Assembly: GCA_034431195.1 (NCBI GenBank)
Contig: DAOUDP010000001.1
Location: 179,385 to 243,384, forward strand
From: Dehalococcoidia bacterium
Lineage (GTDB): Bacteria > Chloroflexota > Dehalococcoidia > GIF9 > AB-539-J10
DNA length: 64,000 nt
Direction: 5' to 3'
In this document: piece after piece, positions 30,180 to 43,107 of the stretch
How the letters are laid out: every line of letters begins with the position of its first letter
How positions within the stretch are numbered: the stretch's first letter is position 1
Translations under genes and position numbers: made by a program
The notes under the pieces: model-generated
The model's input: the letters and a program-made list of their open reading frames with translations, nothing else
The model's database searches: none
What the model was told of the DNA's origin: nothing

Positions 30180-32816
30180 ATGTTGGGCTGGTTTACCAAA
30201 TTAATCGATTCTAACGAAAAAGAGCTGAAGCGACTTCAACCTTTGGTATCCCATATAAACTCGCTTGAGCCCGATTTTGAAAAACTCACCGACGGTGAGC
30301 TTCGCGACAAAACAGATGAGTTCAGGACCAGACTAAAGGATGACGAGGATTTAGATGACCTCTCATCTGAAGCTTATGCTGCAGTGAGAGAGGCTGCCAA
30401 ACGAACGATAAAGCAAAGACATTTCGATGTTCAATTAATGGGTGGAGTTGTCCTTCACCAAGGCAAAATAGCTGAAATGGCAACTGGAGAGGGAAAAACG
30501 CTGGTGGCTACATTGCCGCTTTACCTCAACGCCCTTACCGGGGAAGGATGTCACTTAGTAACCGTCAACGATTATCTCGCGAAGCGTGATTGTAACTGGA
30601 TGGGGCCTATCTACCATGCCCTCGGAGTAAGCGTGGCATGCATCAATGCCATGCAATCTCCAGACCAACCTTCACCTTCTTTCCTTTATGACCCCGATTT
30701 TGACTCCGGAGACCCGAAATGGAGGCAGCTTCGCCCCATCACCCGCCGCGAGGCTTATGAAGCAGATATAACCTATGGCACAAATAACGAGTTTGGCTTT
30801 GATTACCTCAGAGACAATATGGTCCTGGACTTATCCCAGTGCGTCCAGCGGGAGCTTAACTATGCCATCGTAGATGAAGTTGACAGCATCCTCATCGACG
30901 AAGCCCGCACACCACTGATTATAAGCGGAGCTGCTGAAGAAGCCACCCAGAAATACTACACCTTCGCTCGGCTCGTTTCTCGCCTCAAAAAAGATGACGA
31001 TTACACCGTTGACGAAAAGACACGAACATGCTCACTCACGGAAATCGGCATCGGCAAGATGGAGAAGATGCTCAAGAGCGCCGGATTGCTTAAGGCTCCC
31101 AGCTTTTACGACCCCTCCAACTACTCACTCACCCGATATCTGGAGAATGCCCTCAAGGCTCATGCTCTGTTCAGAAGGGACAAAGACTACATGGTTAAGG
31201 ATGGGCAAGTTATCATCGTTGATGAATTTACCGGAAGGTTGATGTTTGGCAGAAGGTATTCTGAGGGCTTACACCAGGCTATCGAAGCCAGGGAAGGTGT
31301 AAAGGTACAGCGGGAAAGCATCACTTTAGCCACCATCACCTTCCAGAACTATTTCCGCCTGTACCAGAAATTAGCGGGGATGACTGGCACCGCCGCCACC
31401 GAGGCTGAAGAGTTTCACAAGATTTATAAATTGGAGGTGGTGGTTATACCCACCAACAAACCCCTGGTCCGCACTGAACATACTGACCAGGTTTACAAAG
31501 ATGAGAAGGCCAAGTTTGAAGCTGTCGCCAGAGAAATTGAGCATTGGCATAAGCAAAAAAGACCGGTGCTCATTGGCACAACCTCCATTGAGAAATCGGA
31601 GACGTTAAGCAACTTATTAACCAGGAAAGGCGTACCTCACCAGGTGCTGAATGCCAAGCATCATGAGAAGGAGGCAGCCATTGTTGCTCAGGCTGGTTGT
31701 TTAGAAGCAGTAACTGTAGCTACAAATATGGCTGGACGCGGTGTGGACATCATTCTTGGAGGCAATCCTGAAAAACGTGATAGCAAGGGATGGCTTGAGG
31801 AGCATAACAAGGTGGTTGAACTTGGCGGCCTCCATATTGTAGGCACTGAGCATCATGAAGCCAGACGCATTGATAACCAGCTCCGCGGCAGAGCAGGGAG
31901 ACAGGGAGACCACGGCAGTTCCCGCTTCTTTGCCTCTTTAGAGGACGAAGTTGTCCACCGCTTCGGCGGCGACCGCATCGGAGGACTTATGCAATGGGCT
32001 GGCCTGGGAGAGGATAAGCCTCTCGAGCATCCTATGGTCAGCAAGGCGATGACAAATGCCCAAGTGCAGAGCGAGGGATATAACTTCGATATTCGCAAAC
32101 ACCTTGTTGAGTATGATGATGTAGTCAATCAGCATCGCGAGGTAATTTATGACGAAAGGAAGAAAATACTGAGCGGTGCCGACCTTAAGGCAAATATAAT
32201 GTCTATGATTACAGATGAAATTCAAACCGTGGTGGACGCTCATATCAACCACAATTTAAGTGAGCCCGATTTATCAGGATTGCGTGAAGACATTTCCGCC
32301 ATTTTCCCCTCACCACCTGACATTGCCAGCCTTTCTTCTGTCATTGCAAGCCGAAGCCCTGAGCGAAGCGAAGGGGCAGCGAAGCAACCCGAGTTTGACA
32401 GCAAGGAAATTGCCGACAAGCTAACCAATTACGCCATTGATCTTTACGAGCAGAAGGAGCAGGAAATAGGTGCCGAAAACATGCGCCTTATCGAGCGTAT
32501 GGTAATGCTTCGCGTTATTGACCGCTTATGGATGGAGCATCTTACCACCATGGAGGACATGCGGCAGGGAATAGGCTTGCGAGCTGTGGGACAGCAAAAC
32601 CCGCTGGTAGTGTACAAAAGGGAAGGAGGCATTCTTTTTGATGGTCTTCTGGCTAGCATCCAGCATGATGTCGTCCGCAGCATCTATCGGGTCAGCCTGG
32701 TTAAAAAAGAGCCGCCACTCAAAAAACAGGCTGTAATAGCCGGTAAGAAAGTGGGCCGCAACGACCCCTGCCCCTGCGGGTCAGGCAAGAAATATAAACA
32801 CTGCTGCGGAAGGTAG
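30180..32816 (+). CDS. secA: preprotein translocase ATPase SecA
   Basis: 878 aa with DEAD-like motor motifs and a C-terminal zinc-binding [14 protein letters not shown]. Confidence 0.95.
32785..32813 (+). repeat. direct repeat copy A (the native secA 3' end); attL-like
   Basis: GCAAGAAATATAAACACTGCTGCGGAAGG recurs at 34410-34438 with a single mismatch. Confidence 0.8.
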
Positions 32817-32824
32817 GATTAGGT

Positions 32825-33802
32825 ATGGGGAATCATGTACTACTTGTAAGTAGAGAGCATTTTAATAAGTGTCTTAAGTATGGAATATATGGTGCTCCCT
32901 CTCACCCACTTGAGAGAATTAATTCGGAAATTATAGCTGGTTCTGAAGCTATTAAAGCAGGAGACTTCATATTCTTCTATGTTAAAAACATTGGAGTATA
33001 TGGTTTGTGGAGAGCAACAAGTCGTCCGTTCTTTGACGAGACTGATATTTGGGGTGAAAAAGACCAGAAGTATCCTTATAGGATCTGCTTCGCACCCTCA
33101 ATTAGGTATTTCTCAAAGCCAATTGCCCTTAGTGATGTTTTAGATTTGCGAGATAGGGGAAAGATATGGACATTTGATTTAGGAGCTATCCGCGCAAAGA
33201 ATCACAATCCGCTAACCACTGATGAAAGCAAAGACTTAATACGCCTTTTCCTAAGGAATAATCCTATTTTTCATTCAGTTGCATCCATACCAGAACCGTA
33301 CCCAGCAGGTAATATCACACTGCCATTAAGCCTAGAATCAGATAGTAGGGGACGTATAAGATATGAGGGCTTCTTAAATGCTTGGTTTATGAGGAGTTTT
33401 GTTGATGGTAGATTCAAGGAAATCATTGGCGAATATAGAGATTTTCTAAACTTTGTCCCTACCTCTTTTAATAAAGTAATGGATATTTTTCTTACGCATG
33501 TCACCTCAGTTGACGGTGTTGATATCCTTCATAAATTTACTTGCATCGAGCTAAAAACAGGAATATGCACTGAAGAAGATTTGAATCAGATCATTAAATA
33601 CGAAAATTGGCTCGTAAGGAAGCTAGCTAATGGTGATAGTGAAATGGTCCAAAGCGTCCTCGTTGCATTCGATTTTCAAGACAAAGTATTGGAATATGTG
33701 CAGAAGAGAAGAACGATAGAGGAAAAGACAGTCAGGTTGCTAAAATATCGAGTGACTAAAGAACAAAACGATATTATATTAACTGAAATTGAATTCGGAT
33801 AG
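32825..33802 (+). CDS. EVE (PUA-like) domain fused to a PD-(D/E)xK nuclease; candidate modification-dependent (type IV) restriction endonuclease
   Basis: N-terminal AGSEAIKAGDFIFFYVKNIGVYGLWRATSRPFFD resembles the EVE/PUA-like GD-x-hFFYHS...G core; C-terminal VDGVDILHKFTCIELKTG fits a D...E-x-K motif; low GC. Confidence 0.55.
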   Translation: MGNHVLLVSREHFNKCLKYGIYGAPSHPLERINSEIIAGSEAIKAGDFIFFYVKNIGVYGLWRATSRPFFDETDIWGEKDQKYPYRICFAPSIRYFSKPIALSDVLDLRDRGKIWTFDLGAIRAKNHNPLTTDESKDLIRLFLRNNPIFHSVASIPEPYPAGNITLPLSLESDSRGRIRYEGFLNAWFMRSFVDGRFKEIIGEYRDFLNFVPTSFNKVMDIFLTHVTSVDGVDILHKFTCIELKTGICTEEDLNQIIKYENWLVRKLANGDSEMVQSVLVAFDFQDKVLEYVQKRRTIEEKTVRLLKYRVTKEQNDIILTEIEFG

Positions 33803-34289
33803 GAGGTTTGACGCAATGTCGGATGAAGCTATCACCGGAGTTTACAACTCTGACATTTCTGATGACGCTATTCATGAGCTTGCTCCGTCTATCCTTTTGA
33901 GCGAACAGAGTTCAGAGTTCACGCTTAACCAGGGTAAATATGCCTATCGGGTTAAAGGGGGGAAGGATGGACACCTATACTATAAAAAGAGGGCTAACGA
34001 CAGTTGGATCCTTATTGCAAACTGGTGCCTTTATGGTCTTTATATTGTAATCCGTTATAGGAAACCATTATGGCTAAGGCCAATGTATCGGAGCTTGTTT
34101 AGCAAAATGAATTTTGTTTCTATCACCTTCAGCGACCATAGTATTGAAGCGATGGGCACAGATGGACAAATTTTAAGAGGTAGACGGCTCCGCCTCAGTC
34201 CTCCTTTTGCTTTTGAAGAAGTTATGATGGAGAAGTTTGGTTATTCCCTACAGAAGGCGGAAGTGCTTCGATCGAAATTGGATTTGTGA
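33789..34289 (+). CDS. hypothetical protein; start possibly at 33816. Its 3' end overlaps a frameshifted remnant of the small gene at 36631-36843
   Basis: ORF only; the C-terminal AEVLRSKLDL resembles the N-terminus DVVEEFLDCEL of the 36631 gene. Confidence 0.3.
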   Translation: MNSDRRFDAMSDEAITGVYNSDISDDAIHELAPSILLSEQSSEFTLNQGKYAYRVKGGKDGHLYYKKRANDSWILIANWCLYGLYIVIRYRKPLWLRPMYRSLFSKMNFVSITFSDHSIEAMGTDGQILRGRRLRLSPPFAFEEVMMEKFGYSLQKAEVLRSKLDL

Positions 34290-34320
34290 TTTAATTGTTG
34301 AAGTGAAACCCTCCAAAGAT

Positions 34321-34389
34321 TTTTGCCAGTATGTTGAGGACGATTATTACGAGTGGCTGAAGGATAACTTCAAGTCCTTCTTCGACCAT
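34321..34389 (+). repeat. direct repeat copy B (small-gene fragment); B' at 36727-36793
   Basis: About 69 bp of similarity, mostly synonymous differences. Confidence 0.75.
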
Positions 34390-34409
34390 GGAAATCTAGA
34401 CCGGGAGCA

Positions 34410-34438
34410 GCAAGAAATACAAACACTGCTGCGGAAGG
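34410..34438 (+). repeat. direct repeat copy A' of the secA 3' end
   Basis: GCAAGAAATACAAACACTGCTGCGGAAGG versus the secA end; 28 of 29 identical. Confidence 0.8.
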
Positions 34439-34621
34439 GGAACATAATTCCGAGGGGCTAATTATAATGGAAGCTTGCTTAGGCATTACTATGTTGATAA
34501 ATGCGAAAAGTCTTTCGCTATGCTTGCCACCTTGATTGTTGGGATGGGGAGGAGATTTTAGAGGAGATAAAGGTATGAAAGGTTACAAGGGAAAAAGAAT
34601 AACTTATGGAGGTGCAATAAA

Positions 34622-35629
34622 ATGGAACGAGATTCAAACTTTCAGATGCTGTCTTGGTTTACAGATCAACATAGAATGGGAAATCTCGATTTAGAGCCTC
34701 CGTATCAAAGAAAAAGTATTTGGAATAATGACTACAAAGTTTATTTCATTGATACGATTCTTCGGAACTTCCCTTGTCCAACCATATTTCTAGCAGTTGA
34801 GCTTAGTTCAAGTGGACTTACTAAATACCATGTTGTGGATGGTAAGCAAAGACTTTTAACGGTTTTCGAATTTGTAAACGATGAGTTCACTACATCAGAG
34901 ATATACAGTGACCCTGATTACGCCGACAAGTATTTTTCACAATTGCCAGCCAAGGTAAAGACTCGTTTCTGGGGATACAAGTTTACAATAGAATATCTTA
35001 AAACCGAAAGTAGAAAAGACTTAAATGATTCTTTTGACAGGTTGAATAGGAATGTTGCTCGGTTAAATAAACAAGAACTGCGACATGCGCGACACGCTGG
35101 AGCATTCATCACCTACGTAACCCAGTTATCAGACGATCCATTTTGGAAAGATATGGGGATATCTACTCCCTCAAGAATAAGAAGAATGCTAGATATTGAA
35201 TATGTTTCGGAGATATTTTTAGTGGTTATGCACGGAATCAAAGACGGTAGAGACCATTTAGACGAATATTTTGCAGTGTACGATGATGAAATTCCAGACT
35301 TAGAAGAAAACAGAAAAAAATATGAAGTATGTAAGGATCTCATTGCAAAGCTAGATGTATACAAAACACGGTATAGCAACCTTGCAGACCTCTATTCTTT
35401 ATGGTCTGGGATGTCTGAATTATATGACGAGAATGGTGGTAGTTTAGAGATAGCCGTTGAAAGAACAAGAACAAAACTATTACAGTTTGCAGATAGAATC
35501 CGAGGTGACGTAGATGAACAACGAGTTCAAGCCTATGCATTGGCAGTGTTGCAGGCGTCTAATAGTATTAAAAGTAGACAGACTCGTGAGAATATATTGA
35601 AGGGACTTATTGTTGTAAAAAGAAAATGA
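34622..35629 (+). CDS. DUF262 (GmrS/ParB-like NTPase domain) protein
   Basis: EPPYQRKSIWNN...FIDTILRNFPCPTIFL...HVVDGKQRLLTVFEF, the DGQQR-type motif of DUF262; a second block FDRLNRNVARLNKQELRHA; low GC; 4-nt overlap with the downstream gene. Confidence 0.8.
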   Translation: MERDSNFQMLSWFTDQHRMGNLDLEPPYQRKSIWNNDYKVYFIDTILRNFPCPTIFLAVELSSSGLTKYHVVDGKQRLLTVFEFVNDEFTTSEIYSDPDYADKYFSQLPAKVKTRFWGYKFTIEYLKTESRKDLNDSFDRLNRNVARLNKQELRHARHAGAFITYVTQLSDDPFWKDMGISTPSRIRRMLDIEYVSEIFLVVMHGIKDGRDHLDEYFAVYDDEIPDLEENRKKYEVCKDLIAKLDVYKTRYSNLADLYSLWSGMSELYDENGGSLEIAVERTRTKLLQFADRIRGDVDEQRVQAYALAVLQASNSIKSRQTRENILKGLIVVKRK

Positions 35630-36585
35630 TAATTCCCAGATCCATTGAAGCTTTCTACGGCAAAGTAGCAGAGTCTTTATATGTTCTTAAGTACAACATT
35701 GACCAACCACTTAAGAATATAGCTGATTCATTAAATATCAGGTATGTCCACGCGAGGATAAAGCCAAAAGAGAGCTTGATGGCCAAAATAGAGAAAGAAG
35801 GGTGTAAGAATCCAGCCGATGAAATTGAGGATCTAGTCGCTTGTAGATTAATCGTGAATAACATATCTGAGATAGGTTATGTAAAAGAGAAGATAAAACA
35901 ACTATTCAATATAGAGGATGAAAAATCTAAAAGATCTCGCTCACCAAATGAATTTTTGTACGATGCCATTCATTTAATATTAAGTTTTAAAGACAGTCCC
36001 TTTATAAGTAATAAGGACATCTTAGGGAAGAAATTTGAATTGCAAATTAAAACCAGCCTACAAAATGCATTAGATGAAGTAACACGCGGCGAAATTTATA
36101 AAACAGATATATTAACCTGGGAAAAAGATAGGACTGCAAGCGAGTTAAGAGCAAATCTTGAATTACTAGATACATTGTTAAAGGATTTCCCGAAGATAGT
36201 TGCTATTCAAGAGGAGAGAGAATATGAACTATATCAAAATAGGAACAAGATAATAGCTTTACTTAAAGATGTTTGGAGCGCTGAAAAATTACCTGACGAT
36301 TTACGGAGGGCAAGCATTGTTATTGAGGAGTACCTGAAACTGGCTGAGGCAAAGGTAGAAGATTTATCTAGTTGGCTAAATCTTGACAGGTACAGAAATG
36401 CTGTTAAGGCTGTCTCAATTACTCCGTGTCAAATAATATTGATTATCTTGTTCCTAGAAAAAGGGGCTTTCCTTAACAACGTAAGAAGACAAAATAGATG
36501 TTTGCTCATAACCGATGAGATGATAGATATATGTCCCGAACTTAAGGAAATAGACCTATCATATCGCGTGAACATCGATTACTAG
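35626..36585 (+). CDS. RelA/SpoT-homolog (RSH) synthetase-domain nucleotidyltransferase (small-alarmone-synthetase/toxSAS-like)
   Basis: Syn motifs: RYVHARIKPKESLMAKIEKEG (basic ATP-binding motif), IEDLVACRLIV (D-x-x-G/A-x-R-h-h), YDAIHLILSF, FELQIKTSLQNALDEVTRGEIYK (E-h-Q-I-R/K-T...YK). Confidence 0.75.
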   Translation: MIIPRSIEAFYGKVAESLYVLKYNIDQPLKNIADSLNIRYVHARIKPKESLMAKIEKEGCKNPADEIEDLVACRLIVNNISEIGYVKEKIKQLFNIEDEKSKRSRSPNEFLYDAIHLILSFKDSPFISNKDILGKKFELQIKTSLQNALDEVTRGEIYKTDILTWEKDRTASELRANLELLDTLLKDFPKIVAIQEEREYELYQNRNKIIALLKDVWSAEKLPDDLRRASIVIEEYLKLAEAKVEDLSSWLNLDRYRNAVKAVSITPCQIILIILFLEKGAFLNNVRRQNRCLLITDEMIDICPELKEIDLSYRVNIDY

Positions 36586-36630
36586 GGACTCAGCAAGGGT
36601 TAACCAAATACTTATACAAGGTAGCAAAAG

Positions 36631-36843
36631 ATGCTTGATAGAGATGTAGTTGAAGAATTCCTTGATTGTGAACTTGAGGGTATAGAAATTCCTGCGGATA
36701 TTTCCAAGGAACAGCTTGTAGAAGCTTTTTGTCAGTATGTTGAAGATGATTACTACGAATGGCTGAAGGATAACTTCAAGTCGTTCTTCGACCACTGCAA
36801 CCCAGATTGGGAGTGGATAAGGGAGAAGCTTAAGAACCAGTGA
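36631..36843 (+). CDS. small hypothetical protein (70 aa), intact copy of the duplicated small gene
   Basis: ORF with a partial diverged copy at 34237-34400; its stop overlaps the polX start. Confidence 0.45.
   Translation: MLDRDVVEEFLDCELEGIEIPADISKEQLVEAFCQYVEDDYYEWLKDNFKSFFDHCNPDWEWIREKLKNQ
36727..36793 (+). repeat. direct repeat copy B'
   Basis: Matches 34321-34389. Confidence 0.75.
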
Positions 36844-38564
36844 GAAACACCGCTATCGCCAAAGTATTCAGCGATATAGCAGACCTCCTCGAGCTCAAAG
36901 GTGAGAACCAGTTCAAGATTCGTGCTTACCAGAAGGCAGTTCGCGCTATTGAGCACTATCCCAAGGAAATAAGAATTATGATTGACGAAGGGGAGGACTT
37001 GAAGAGTATCCCCGGGGTAGGAGACGCAATAGCCAAAAAAACAACCGAACTGGTGAAGACGGGAAAACTGGAATACTACGAGAAACTTAAAGCCGAGTTT
37101 CCCGAAGGGATAACTAATCTCCTCGATATACCGGGGATTGGCCCAAAGACAGCTAACAAACTCTGCTCCGAACTGGGGATAACTTCAGCAGATAGCCTGG
37201 AGCAAGCGATAAAGGATGGCAGCGTGGCCACGCTGTTTCGTCTTGGTGAAAAGACCGCCAATAATATCCTCCAGCAAGTCGAGGCCTCCCGCCGCAAGGA
37301 CCAACGCATCTCTATCGGGGAGGCTTTGCCTATCGTCGAAGAAATACTCAGTGCTCTCAACTCTGTCCCCGGGGTGAGAAATCTAACTTACGCTGGAAGT
37401 CTGCGCCGCTTCCGAGAAACATTGGGCGACATTGACCTTATGGGCACCGTCGATAACCCCCAGAAAGTTATGGACGCTTTTGTCTCGTTACCTATTGTAG
37501 GGCAGGTTTTAGTCCAGGGACCCACTAAATCAAGCGCCATAGTCTCCGGTGGTTTGCAAGTCGACTTAAGACTGGTAGAACACGAGGCTTTTGGGTCACT
37601 GCTTCAATATTTCACCGGAAGTAAACAACATAATATTTCTTTAAGGGAAAGAGGGCGAAGGCAAGGATTAAAATTGAGCGAATATGGCATCACCGATATT
37701 GCCACAGATAAGCTGGAGAAATTTGCTGATGAAGAGAATTTTTATCACCGACTGGGGATGCAGTATATTCCCCCCGAGCTTAGAGAAGATCAAGGCGAGG
37801 TGGAAAAGGCTGAACGGGGAGCCATCCCCAGGCTTGTAGAGGTGTCCGATATAAAGGGAGACCTCCATATGCACACCGATTGGAGTGATGGGCATAGCTC
37901 CATCAAGGAAATGGCTCTAGCGGCTAAAAAATTAGGGTATCAGTATATTGCCATCACCGAGCATTCCGGTGGGCGCGGCATCGCCCACGGGCTTGATGTT
38001 GAACGGCTAAGGAAACAGATTGAGGAAATCAAAAAGGTCAATGAATACATAGATGGCATTCAAGTGTTCAGTGGCATCGAGGTTGATATCCGAGCAGATG
38101 GGACTCTGGATTTACCCCACGAAATTTTGGCAAAGTTGGATGTAGTTATCGCTGCGGTGCATTCAGCGATGAACCAAAGCGAGGGAAAAATGACCCAGAG
38201 AGTACTAAGCGCTGTGGAGGACCCCGATGTCGACATTATTGCCCATCCTACCTGTCGTCTTCTGGGCGAGCGTGAACCTATAGCCCTTGACCTGGAAGCG
38301 GTTTTTCGCACCGCTGTCAAGAACAACAAAATCATGGAGATAAATGCCATGCCCGACAGACTTGACTTGAATGATATTCATGCCTCCAGGGCTAGAGAAC
38401 TAGGTGTGAAGCTTGCTATCGAGACCGATGCCCATGCTGTCTCCCACCTTGATTTTATGAGGTTTGGAGTCGGCATGGCGCGGCGAGCCTGGTGTGAGCC
38501 TCAACATATAGTAAATACTCTGCCCCTGGCAGACGTGCTCACCTTCCTGAATGTGAGCAGATAA
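36840..38564 (+). CDS. polX: DNA polymerase X family protein with a C-terminal PHP phosphoesterase domain
   Basis: N-terminal NxxIAxxFxxIAxLLExxGENxFKIRAY helix-hairpin-helix region; PolX palm; C-terminal PHP (DLHMHTDWSDG...). Confidence 0.9.
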   Translation: MRNTAIAKVFSDIADLLELKGENQFKIRAYQKAVRAIEHYPKEIRIMIDEGEDLKSIPGVGDAIAKKTTELVKTGKLEYYEKLKAEFPEGITNLLDIPGIGPKTANKLCSELGITSADSLEQAIKDGSVATLFRLGEKTANNILQQVEASRRKDQRISIGEALPIVEEILSALNSVPGVRNLTYAGSLRRFRETLGDIDLMGTVDNPQKVMDAFVSLPIVGQVLVQGPTKSSAIVSGGLQVDLRLVEHEAFGSLLQYFTGSKQHNISLRERGRRQGLKLSEYGITDIATDKLEKFADEENFYHRLGMQYIPPELREDQGEVEKAERGAIPRLVEVSDIKGDLHMHTDWSDGHSSIKEMALAAKKLGYQYIAITEHSGGRGIAHGLDVERLRKQIEEIKKVNEYIDGIQVFSGIEVDIRADGTLDLPHEILAKLDVVIAAVHSAMNQSEGKMTQRVLSAVEDPDVDIIAHPTCRLLGEREPIALDLEAVFRTAVKNNKIMEINAMPDRLDLNDIHASRARELGVKLAIETDAHAVSHLDFMRFGVGMARRAWCEPQHIVNTLPLADVLTFLNVSR

Positions 38565-42921: not shown

Positions 42922-43107
42922 TCAAGGCTTTGGAATTTCCAAGTCTTTGCAGATCTTCTTTATCAAAAAGTCATTAATCTCTCGATGGCGAGGGACAGTG
43001 GAGGTTCTGTTATTGGCTGGATTATAAAATACACTGTGCTTGCTACCTTCTCGGAATAATTGGCATCCTTGGTTATAAAGGTGCCTCAGCAAATCCCTTC
43101 GTTTCAT
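42922..43107 (-). CDS. hicA: HicA-family toxin
   Basis: 61 aa LLRHLYNQGCQLFREGSKHSVFYNPANNRTSTVPRHREIN, the YcfA/HicA pattern. Confidence 0.7.
   Translation of the reverse strand: MKRRDLLRHLYNQGCQLFREGSKHSVFYNPANNRTSTVPRHREINDFLIKKICKDLEIPKP

Follow-up and report, generated by a model that had tools for sequence, protein, structure and literature searches.

What role does a DUF262 protein play when it lacks the nuclease of its better known relatives and the gene behind it encodes a RelA/SpoT homolog (RSH)? We examined this question in a 64,000-nt stretch of a Dehalococcoidia bacterium genome (GCA_034431195.1, contig DAOUDP010000001.1, 179,385-243,384 of the forward strand; hereafter the window, to which all positions are relative), where two adjacent open reading frames (ORFs) on the plus strand, both with an ATG start, raise it. 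ORF1 (34622-35629, 335 aa) encodes a stand-alone protein of the DUF262 type (a ParB/Srx-like NTPase), helical in its C-terminal half and devoid of a nuclease domain, and ORF2 (35626-36585, 319 aa) encodes an RSH pyrophosphokinase of the small alarmone synthetase (SAS) or toxSAS type with a C-terminal extension. We give an even chance to the reading that the two form a self-contained, horizontally mobile conflict module composed of a sensor/regulator and a toxic pyrophosphokinase. The observations behind this reading are the domain identities, intact motifs, translational coupling, near-obligate co-occurrence, co-divergence, lower guanine plus cytosine (GC) content, and neighbourhoods of mobile and restriction-modification genes.

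Both ORFs lie exactly where an earlier, sequence-only reading of the window had placed them, and all the motifs that it quoted were found in them. The stop of ORF1 and the start of ORF2 overlap in ATGA (35626-35629, plus strand), an arrangement seen in the sequence and typical of translational coupling, and a Shine-Dalgarno-like GGAGG (34608-34612, plus strand), also read from the sequence, stands 9 nt 5' of the ORF1 ATG. A scan around the two genes gave no convincing sigma-70-type promoter or terminator, with promoter-like sites fewer than in shuffles. Homologs of ORF1 and ORF2 number dozens to thousands, so both are real genes and not chance ORFs. The low GC content reported for the pair was likewise borne out (0.36, against 0.47 in the rest of the window).

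ORF1 matched Pfam GmrSD_N (PF03235; E=5e-19, 69.5 bits, cutoff 33.2) at residues 20-158, the envelope of the DUF262 domain (34679-35095, plus strand), in which the motifs PPYQRxxxW, VVDGKQRL, and FDRLNRNVARLNKQELRHA are located; a score above the gathering threshold together with QRxxxW, DGxQR, and the third motif identifies the protein as a DUF262 member. Among 32 aligned homologs with identities as low as 43%, the motifs QRxxxW, DGKQR, and FxRLNRNV..L..QELR were unvaried, and Q29, R30, W34, D73, G74, K75, Q76, R77, F138, R140-V145, and Q151-R154 were invariant. The NTP-binding site is therefore under purifying selection. No DUF1524 or HNH nuclease domain was found in a Pfam search of ORF1, ORF2, and their neighbours, and the profile search thus agrees with the sequence-only reading, which had described a DUF262 protein without either nuclease fused to it. 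In the AlphaFold2 (AF2) model of ORF1 (predicted local distance difference test, pLDDT, 83), the N-terminal half is a ParB/Srx-like alpha/beta fold and the C-terminal half (residues ~160-335, 35099-35626, plus strand) consists of helices only according to DSSP. Fold comparison returned BrxU and SspE as the top structural matches, while a PDB sequence search with the DUF262 profile gave nothing significant, so that the kinship to these two proteins is visible at the fold level only. A ParBDB-type DNA-binding domain has been named in NsnA, SspE, and GmrSD (PMC12065111); the helical half of ORF1 is probably a domain of this type and would accordingly bind DNA.

ORF2 matched Pfam RelA_SpoT (PF04607) at residues 44-160 (E=2e-13, 51 bits, cutoff 27) and has all the Syn motifs of an RSH synthetase, namely Syn1 RxKxxxSxxxK, the Syn2 Asp, the Syn3 aromatic residue, and Syn4 ExQ, which settles the synthetase identity suggested earlier. 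Among 146 family representatives, R44, K46, S50, K54 (Syn1), D69 (Syn2), E138, Q140 (Syn4), Y158, and K159 were invariant or nearly so. The AF2 model (pLDDT 88) has a synthetase (toxSYNTH-like) fold at residues 1-165 (35626-36120, plus strand), whose best PDB fold matches were RelP (15.4), RelQ (15.2), RelP/YwaC (15.1), CapRel (13.8), an exported Streptomyces SAS (13.6), and Tas1 (11.4). Because the NTP-binding motifs of ORF1 and the Syn1, Syn2, and Syn4 residues of ORF2 are intact, both proteins look catalytically active, as far as sequence can tell. The remainder of ORF2, the extension of about 150 aa that the sequence-only reading had pointed out, is a real conserved domain: residues 166-319 (36121-36582, plus strand) form helices only (pLDDT 76-96), with no Pfam match and no separate PDB fold match. 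W165, R169, E179, P223, and R228 are highly conserved family-wide, and an LLITxEM motif close to the C-terminus recurs in several phyla. We propose that this domain binds a partner or regulates the enzyme. One member of the family, P0326 (496 aa), has an N6-methylase fragment ahead of the RSH, either a real fusion or a gene-call artefact.

Two positions near the active site vary in the ORF2 family. The Syn3 acceptor-stacking position 112 is Tyr or Phe, with Phe in 83 of the 146 members (P0189-P0352 alignment), and position 116 is His or Arg, with Arg in 89 of the 146 and Gln in some Dehalococcoidia relatives; ORF2 of the window itself carries Tyr and His. The substitutions hint at an acceptor site unlike that of the characterised enzymes, and they lend something to the idea that the RSH would act on neither free nucleotides nor tRNA, but that ORF1 recruits it to DNA, where a nucleic-acid 3'-OH (for example of phage DNA ends or replication primers) or another macromolecule would be pyrophosphorylated and replication blocked without cell killing. 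Two reports describe pyrophosphorylation of a polynucleotide 3'-OH, the tRNA CCA end, by toxSAS enzymes (bioRxiv 10.1101/2021.04.30.441581, PMC11782079), and ORF1 belongs to a DNA-binding sensor family. We nevertheless hold this idea to be very improbable, since it is conjecture throughout, DNA pyrophosphorylation by an RSH has no precedent, and the remaining active-site motifs are canonical.

How constant is the association of the two genes? Metagenome contigs were scanned with the ORF1 alignment, and the 80 loci returned were searched with custom profiles of both families; in 65 of them the ORF1 ortholog (37-93% identity) was complete and followed by no fewer than 300 nt. We found an RSH gene directly 3' of the ORF1 ortholog in 64 of these 65 loci, the aligned ends either overlapping or lying no more than 26 nt apart, and the junction was similarly tight in loci of other phyla. 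The lone exception (L091:592-2165) has an ORF1 ortholog, 37% identical over ORF1 residues 1-333, followed by an ABC/OLD-type ATPase (PADLOC PDC-M31A, 4e-50, best; NsnB, 6e-12) and no RSH. Conversely, close homologs of ORF2 (62-85% identity) were all in Dehalococcoidia contigs, each right behind an ORF1 ortholog. In other phyla, the ORF1 homologs were full-length (43-50% identity) and the next gene encoded a RelA_SpoT protein of 313-338 aa with like architecture in all loci inspected. The pair is thus conserved across phyla, occurring in Chloroflexota, Actinomycetota, Desulfobacterota, Bacillota, and on Rhizobium plasmids (at least five phyla); hosts outside Dehalococcoidia include Streptomyces hokutonensis, Amycolatopsis, Micromonospora, Desulfurivibrionaceae, a Firmicutes metagenome-assembled genome (MAG), an uncultured Gram-negative bacterium, an actinobacterial integrative element, a Rhizobium conjugative plasmid, and a Ti plasmid on which the RSH gene is split by IS5. 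We took the phyletic breadth from the DUF262 side because the genome scan with the RSH alignment reached the close Dehalococcoidia family only (6 of 185,579 species-representative genomes, 6 loci, all Dehalococcoidia). The full-length RSH family comprises at least 134 clusters (50% identity level) at E<=1e-30. Moreover, the pairwise identities of ORF1 and ORF2 co-vary (r=0.92 overall, 0.46 among divergent pairs), with none of 500 permutations as high.

Two copies of the pair are interrupted. In L103 (3823-7531, an IMG/VR contig), the DUF262 gene is cut in two by an opposite-strand cassette, in which a recombinase-like and a DNA-methylase-like ORF were recognised by eye, and an intact RSH gene lies directly 3'. 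In L183 (1420-4804, Rhizobium Ti plasmid pTiK1_93), just 3' of a BsuBI/PstI restriction-modification system, the DUF262 gene is intact and the RSH gene is broken by the IS5 transposase. Apart from L103, the DUF262 scan of viral contigs gave only distant DUF262 clades without RSH. Among these is a sister clade on prophage-like IMG/VR contigs (L104-L108; for example L104:3631-5741 and L108:4988-7038), a stand-alone DUF262 protein with ~30% identity to ORF1, always preceded by an overlapping gene of 330-380 aa with weak SIR2-like matches (Pfam SIR2_2, 1e-4; PADLOC SIR2 models, 3e-6). No PADLOC system matched this DUF262/SIR2-like pair, which may be another unnamed DUF262 system. In the sister DUF262 clades the putative effector is a different one, an ABC ATPase for L091 and a SIR2-like protein for L104-L108, which fits the theme of one sensor with swappable effectors.

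The surroundings of the pair often contain genes of conflict and mobility. An NgoMIV restriction-modification system and an integrase adjoin the pair of the Firmicutes MAG, and the plasmid copies have BsuBI/PstI restriction-modification (Ti plasmid) and an N6-methylase (conjugative plasmid); Vsr, an SRA-domain protein, and a PLD-helicase neighbour the pair of Streptomyces hokutonensis. The actinomycete integrative-element genes RepSA, FtsK, and integrase are found near pairs, PIN and helix-turn-helix (HTH) toxin-antitoxin genes near one locus, and a weak HEPN match among the neighbours in the uncultured Gram-negative bacterium. In addition, the GC content of the pair was below that of its flanks by 4-20 points in 17 of 17 loci tested. 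Neighbours of this kind together with lower GC are what marks a conflict module that moves horizontally.

A toxin-antitoxin or addiction module of the classical kind would leave many of the same marks. ORF2 would then be a constitutively toxic toxSAS and ORF1 its antitoxin, acting through direct binding (type II) or through degradation or sequestration of the product or substrate via the NTPase site of ORF1 (type IV-like); no part of the module would be dedicated to sensing phages, and it would mainly serve to stabilise a chromosomal segment or a mobile element. The toxSAS modules were discovered by just such a signature, a partner gene upstream, a toxin gene that overlaps it, and conservation in several lineages (PMC7229694), and the conserved, bicistronic, often overlapping arrangement of toxSAS modules holds for our pair as well. 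The pair is borne on conjugative plasmids and integrative elements, addiction would account for its long stable retention at one Dehalococcoidia locus, and the Ti plasmid copy, with the RSH disrupted by an insertion sequence (IS) beside an intact DUF262 gene, has lost the toxin first, as expected of such a module. The partner itself, however, does not look like an antitoxin. Known toxSAS antitoxins are small neutralising domains or S-adenosylhomocysteine (SAH) hydrolases (PMC7229694, PMC10440598), and the modules of FaRel, FaRel2, PhRel, PhRel2, and CapRel have a small antitoxin, a Panacea/PAD1 domain, or a SAH hydrolase as partner (PMC7229694), whereas ORF1 is a large NTPase (335 aa) with an invariant NTP-binding site, a second conserved domain, and full-length homology to defence sensors. 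A mere antitoxin would not need an intact NTPase site, which suggests that ORF1 is more than an inhibitory one. Furthermore, in PANGU, the closest two-gene analogue, the components are singly non-toxic and the partner activates the enzyme. We therefore regard a plain toxin-antitoxin module as unlikely, and by analogy the best-supported reading of ORF1 is that of a sensor/regulator.

Could the pair then be a fragment or member of a system that already has a name, such as GmrSD/BrxU, Menshen, PD-T4-2, Dazbog, PANGU, CapRel, or PADLOC PDC-S33? Partial matches of single proteins point that way. ORF1 matched the PADLOC profiles of NsnA (3.2e-35, residues 16-232) and PD-T4-2_A (6e-19), and ORF2 matched PDC-S33 (1e-11). 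However, PADLOC v2.0.0 has no system model for the pair, neither protein was matched at full length, and the partners that define the systems behind the NsnA, PD-T4-2_A, and PDC-S33 hits were absent. The check on membership in a larger annotated system thus came out in favour of the earlier reading, as did the other computational checks that this reading had proposed. In about 80 loci, the DUF1524 nuclease, NsnB/NsnC, HEPN, and YejK/NA37 were missing, a comparison that left out the non-DUF262 partner of Dazbog. The match to PDC-S33, a single-gene candidate, is weak (24-43 bits) and covers about 47-246 of the 349 profile positions, that is, the synthetase domain only. Membership in a named system is accordingly highly improbable in our estimate.

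Comparison with the individual systems leads to the same place. Known DUF262 systems are GmrSD, BrxU, and SspE with a fused DUF1524 nuclease, PD-T4-2 with HEPN, Dazbog, and Menshen with an ABC ATPase and a nuclease effector (PMC10952713, PMC12065111). GmrSD, BrxU, and SspE share the DUF262 fold and motifs with ORF1, but their DUF1524/HNH nuclease is fused or adjoining, while in the pair it is missing and the effector is supplied in trans by a non-nuclease enzyme. PD-T4-2, Dazbog, and Menshen resemble the pair in that their DUF262 protein stands alone, lacks DUF1524, and ends in a helical domain, and they include the NsnA and PD-T4-2_A profiles that ORF1 matches; their effector, however, is a HEPN/BECR RNase or another nuclease and that of the pair an RSH pyrophosphokinase. 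As regards Menshen (NsnABC), ORF1 is NsnA-like, but the adjoining NsnB ABC-ATPase and NsnC (inPIN plus nuclease) are missing, ORF1 is followed by the RSH with no third gene, and an ATPase occurs in L091 only. As regards PD-T4-2, ORF2 has no match to PD-T4-2_B or to the HEPN partner (PF18735). Known RSH conflict systems are the toxSAS toxin-antitoxin modules (PMC7229694), fused CapRel, Tas1, and PANGU (bioRxiv 10.64898/2026.04.06.716658), and the pseudo-zinc-binding domain of CapRelSJ46 (PDB 7ZTB) is unrelated in sequence to the C-terminal domain of ORF2, which is helical.

The closest parallel is PANGU. In PANGU type I, a DNA-bound YejK-like protein is freed by phage-induced genome degradation, and the freed sensor binds the C-terminal domain of the toxSAS GRel, upon which pppGpp is synthesised; neither component is toxic alone (bioRxiv 10.64898/2026.04.06.716658). 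Like the pair, PANGU type I (the YejK-like nucleoid-associated sensor Pag1A and the GRel protein Pag1B) is a two-gene operon with a DNA-binding sensor of ~300-340 aa and an RSH effector of ~320-340 aa, and it is found in defence neighbourhoods and on mobile elements. Both effectors have an N-terminal synthetase, a helical linker, and a C-terminal domain for partner binding, a role that is proposed in the case of ORF2; the likeness is one of architecture. The two differ in the sensor, which is an NA37/YejK protein in PANGU and a DUF262/ParB-like NTPase without NA37 match in ORF1, and in the C-terminal domain of the effector, which is acidic and DNA-mimicking in PANGU and not consistently acidic in the ORF2 family. 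The net charge of the ORF2 domain is -5 in the window, with a mean of -2 over the 146 members and negative values in 62%. We considered a DNA-mimic role for this domain and did not retain it as a general feature, the charge not being consistently acidic among these members.

Open-access full text yielded no description that links DUF262, GmrSD, or ParB with toxSAS, alarmone, or SpoT, in a search whose scope ended short of the supplementary tables of the toxSAS discovery paper. The sequence-only reading had called the pairing undescribed, and this stands for the combination, which we found neither in that literature nor in PADLOC v2; the principle, in contrast, is already known from PD-T4-2 and PANGU. 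A stand-alone DUF262 protein with a separate non-nuclease effector has precedents in PD-T4-2 with HEPN, Dazbog, and Menshen (PMC10952713, PMC12065111). Because such separate-effector DUF262 systems and a system of DNA-binding sensor and toxSAS (PANGU) are known, the pair is a new sensor-effector combination, widespread and with a new conserved domain, and not a new principle. The same reading had DUF262 replace the nuclease effector, and here it needs correction: it is the RSH that takes the place of the nuclease, and DUF262 keeps the role of sensor.

In SspE and GmrSD, DUF262 senses DNA and activates the effector, with control, there and in BrxU, given by modified-DNA binding and NTP turnover (PMC12065111, PMC10952713). 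For the sensor-effector module that we favour, we propose that ORF1 would serve as the sensor/regulator, combining a ParB-like DUF262 NTPase and a helical domain that probably binds DNA; the same module recognises foreign or modified DNA in GmrSD, BrxU, SspE, Dazbog, and Menshen. The effector would be ORF2, which, once switched on, would use ATP to pyrophosphorylate a purine nucleotide at the 3'-OH, giving (p)ppGpp or (pp)pApp, or alternatively the tRNA CCA end, in the manner of toxSAS enzymes (PMC7229694 and later work); either reaction would halt the growth of the infected cell (abortive infection). By analogy with PANGU, residues 166-319 of ORF2 may offer the docking or regulatory surface by which ORF1 restrains or activates the enzyme. 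We infer a physical interaction of ORF1 with ORF2, and likewise the direction of control (activation or de-repression), the trigger, the substrate, and the defence phenotype.

Within Dehalococcoidia, the pair behaves differently from a roaming defence gene. At least 11 contigs (L001, L004, L008, L009, L012, L013, L026, L028, L036, L037, L040) share one syntenic arrangement, prs-secA-[pair]-small ORF-PolX...valS. The accessory island proposed earlier is thus not a recent one in this class, where the pair keeps to one slot and is as conserved as SecA. Its GC nonetheless lies 9-20 points under that of the flanks in the slot contigs, without amelioration over a long residence. In L008, the usual order of identities is reversed (ORF2 85%, ORF1 72%), which hints at recombination within the pair.

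Several observations weigh against a mobile conflict module. Identity to the window is 72-84% for ORF1 and 62-85% for ORF2, compared with 57-76% for SecA and 52-82% for PolX in the same contigs, and the pair looks like an old, stable vertical resident in Dehalococcoidia, an unusual history for defence genes. Evolution is also slower in ORF1, the putative sensor, than in the effector ORF2 (mean identity 45% vs 29% among divergent pairs), and many arms-race sensors show the reverse. Only housekeeping genes surround some pair loci (L001, L015). A pattern scan of viral contigs with the RSH alignment confirmed no family member. Of the best 150 family representatives, only the five longest could accommodate a DUF262-RSH fusion, and none of these showed one.

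Such stability suits a physiological signalling pair, in which DUF262 would report the state of DNA or of the nucleotide pool and the RSH would give a regulated alarmone pulse, an accessory branch of the stringent response, at least in Dehalococcoidia. The syntenic place beside prs, secA, and PolX, the fact that the pair is no less conserved than SecA in contigs whose SecA has diverged to ~60%, and the housekeeping surroundings of some loci agree with this. Against it, the pair is patchy over at least five phyla with GC under the flanks everywhere, it is found on plasmids, on integrative elements, and beside restriction-modification systems, the close-family patterns reached so few species-representative genomes, all of them Dehalococcoidia, and IS-disrupted and cassette-disrupted copies exist. 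We judge a signalling pair rather improbable on this balance. A bolder reading, to which we attach a slightly lower probability still, is that ORF1 reads the state of DNA (foreign or modified, or host DNA lost) and directly activates ORF2 with a non-classical acceptor (a DNA or primer 3'-OH, or a new nucleotide), the pair having been domesticated to near-core status in Dehalococcoidia. In that case, pyrophosphorylation-based immunity would be distinct from restriction and from known toxSAS action.

If the sensor-effector reading is correct, a system found widely, with no fewer than 134 RSH clusters at the 50% identity level, joins the DUF262 sensor of type IV restriction to an effector that pyrophosphorylates nucleotides or tRNA and not to a nuclease, and would link the fields of modification-dependent restriction and of alarmone/toxSAS toxins. 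It would be the second independent case, after PANGU, of a DNA-binding sensor governing an RSH effector, and an uncharacterised SAS subfamily with its conserved C-terminal domain would gain a partner and a testable role. Given how stable and core-like the pair is in Dehalococcoidia, one may ask whether modules of this kind are open to domestication.

In the window, the stretch from secA (30180-32816) to the PolX/PHP polymerase gene (36840-38564) has low GC throughout (32825-36843), and its truly variable part is a 1.6-kb insert with an EVE-like ORF (32825-33802, plus strand) and a 166-aa ORF (33789-34289, plus strand). The sequence-only reading had named an EVE-nuclease as neighbour, which we do not accept as established: the EVE matches are sub-threshold (Pfam E=0.007, 16.8 bits, cutoff 23; NCBIfam PRK00809 E=4.5e-4), no nuclease-family, PDB, or PHROG match was obtained, and tblastn gave no match to this ORF or to the 166-aa ORF in any related locus, both being confined to the genome of the window. 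A D...ELK-like motif near residue 240 of the EVE-like ORF was noticed by eye only. Two copies of 29 nt from the secA 3' end, in the SEC-C motif codons, flank the insert (32785-32813 and 34410-34438, 28/29 identical), and just inside the second repeat lies a 92-nt partial copy (34316-34407, 85% identical to 36722-36813) of the small ORF that follows the pair; repeat and partial copy look like what a nested insertion, or a recombination event, would leave behind at the 3' end of secA.

The small ORF itself (36631-36843, plus strand, 70 aa) is acidic, overlaps the PolX start in GTGA, and has no family match. It stands behind the RSH gene in some 20 Dehalococcoidia loci (74-89% identity) and is absent from L001 and from other phyla; tied as it is to the Dehalococcoidia loci, it was dropped as a candidate third component. 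The PolX gene beyond it varies in length. The full 570-aa PolX/PHP gene is retained in the window and in L007-L011, and in L001 (6961-7984), L004 (3709-4706), L013, L037, and L040 it has shrunk to an ORF of ~90 aa with HHH_8, followed by an ORF of ~240-250 aa without Pfam match. Further along the window, a 61-aa ORF adjoining valS (42922-43107, minus strand) resembles a HicA-type toxin by eye.

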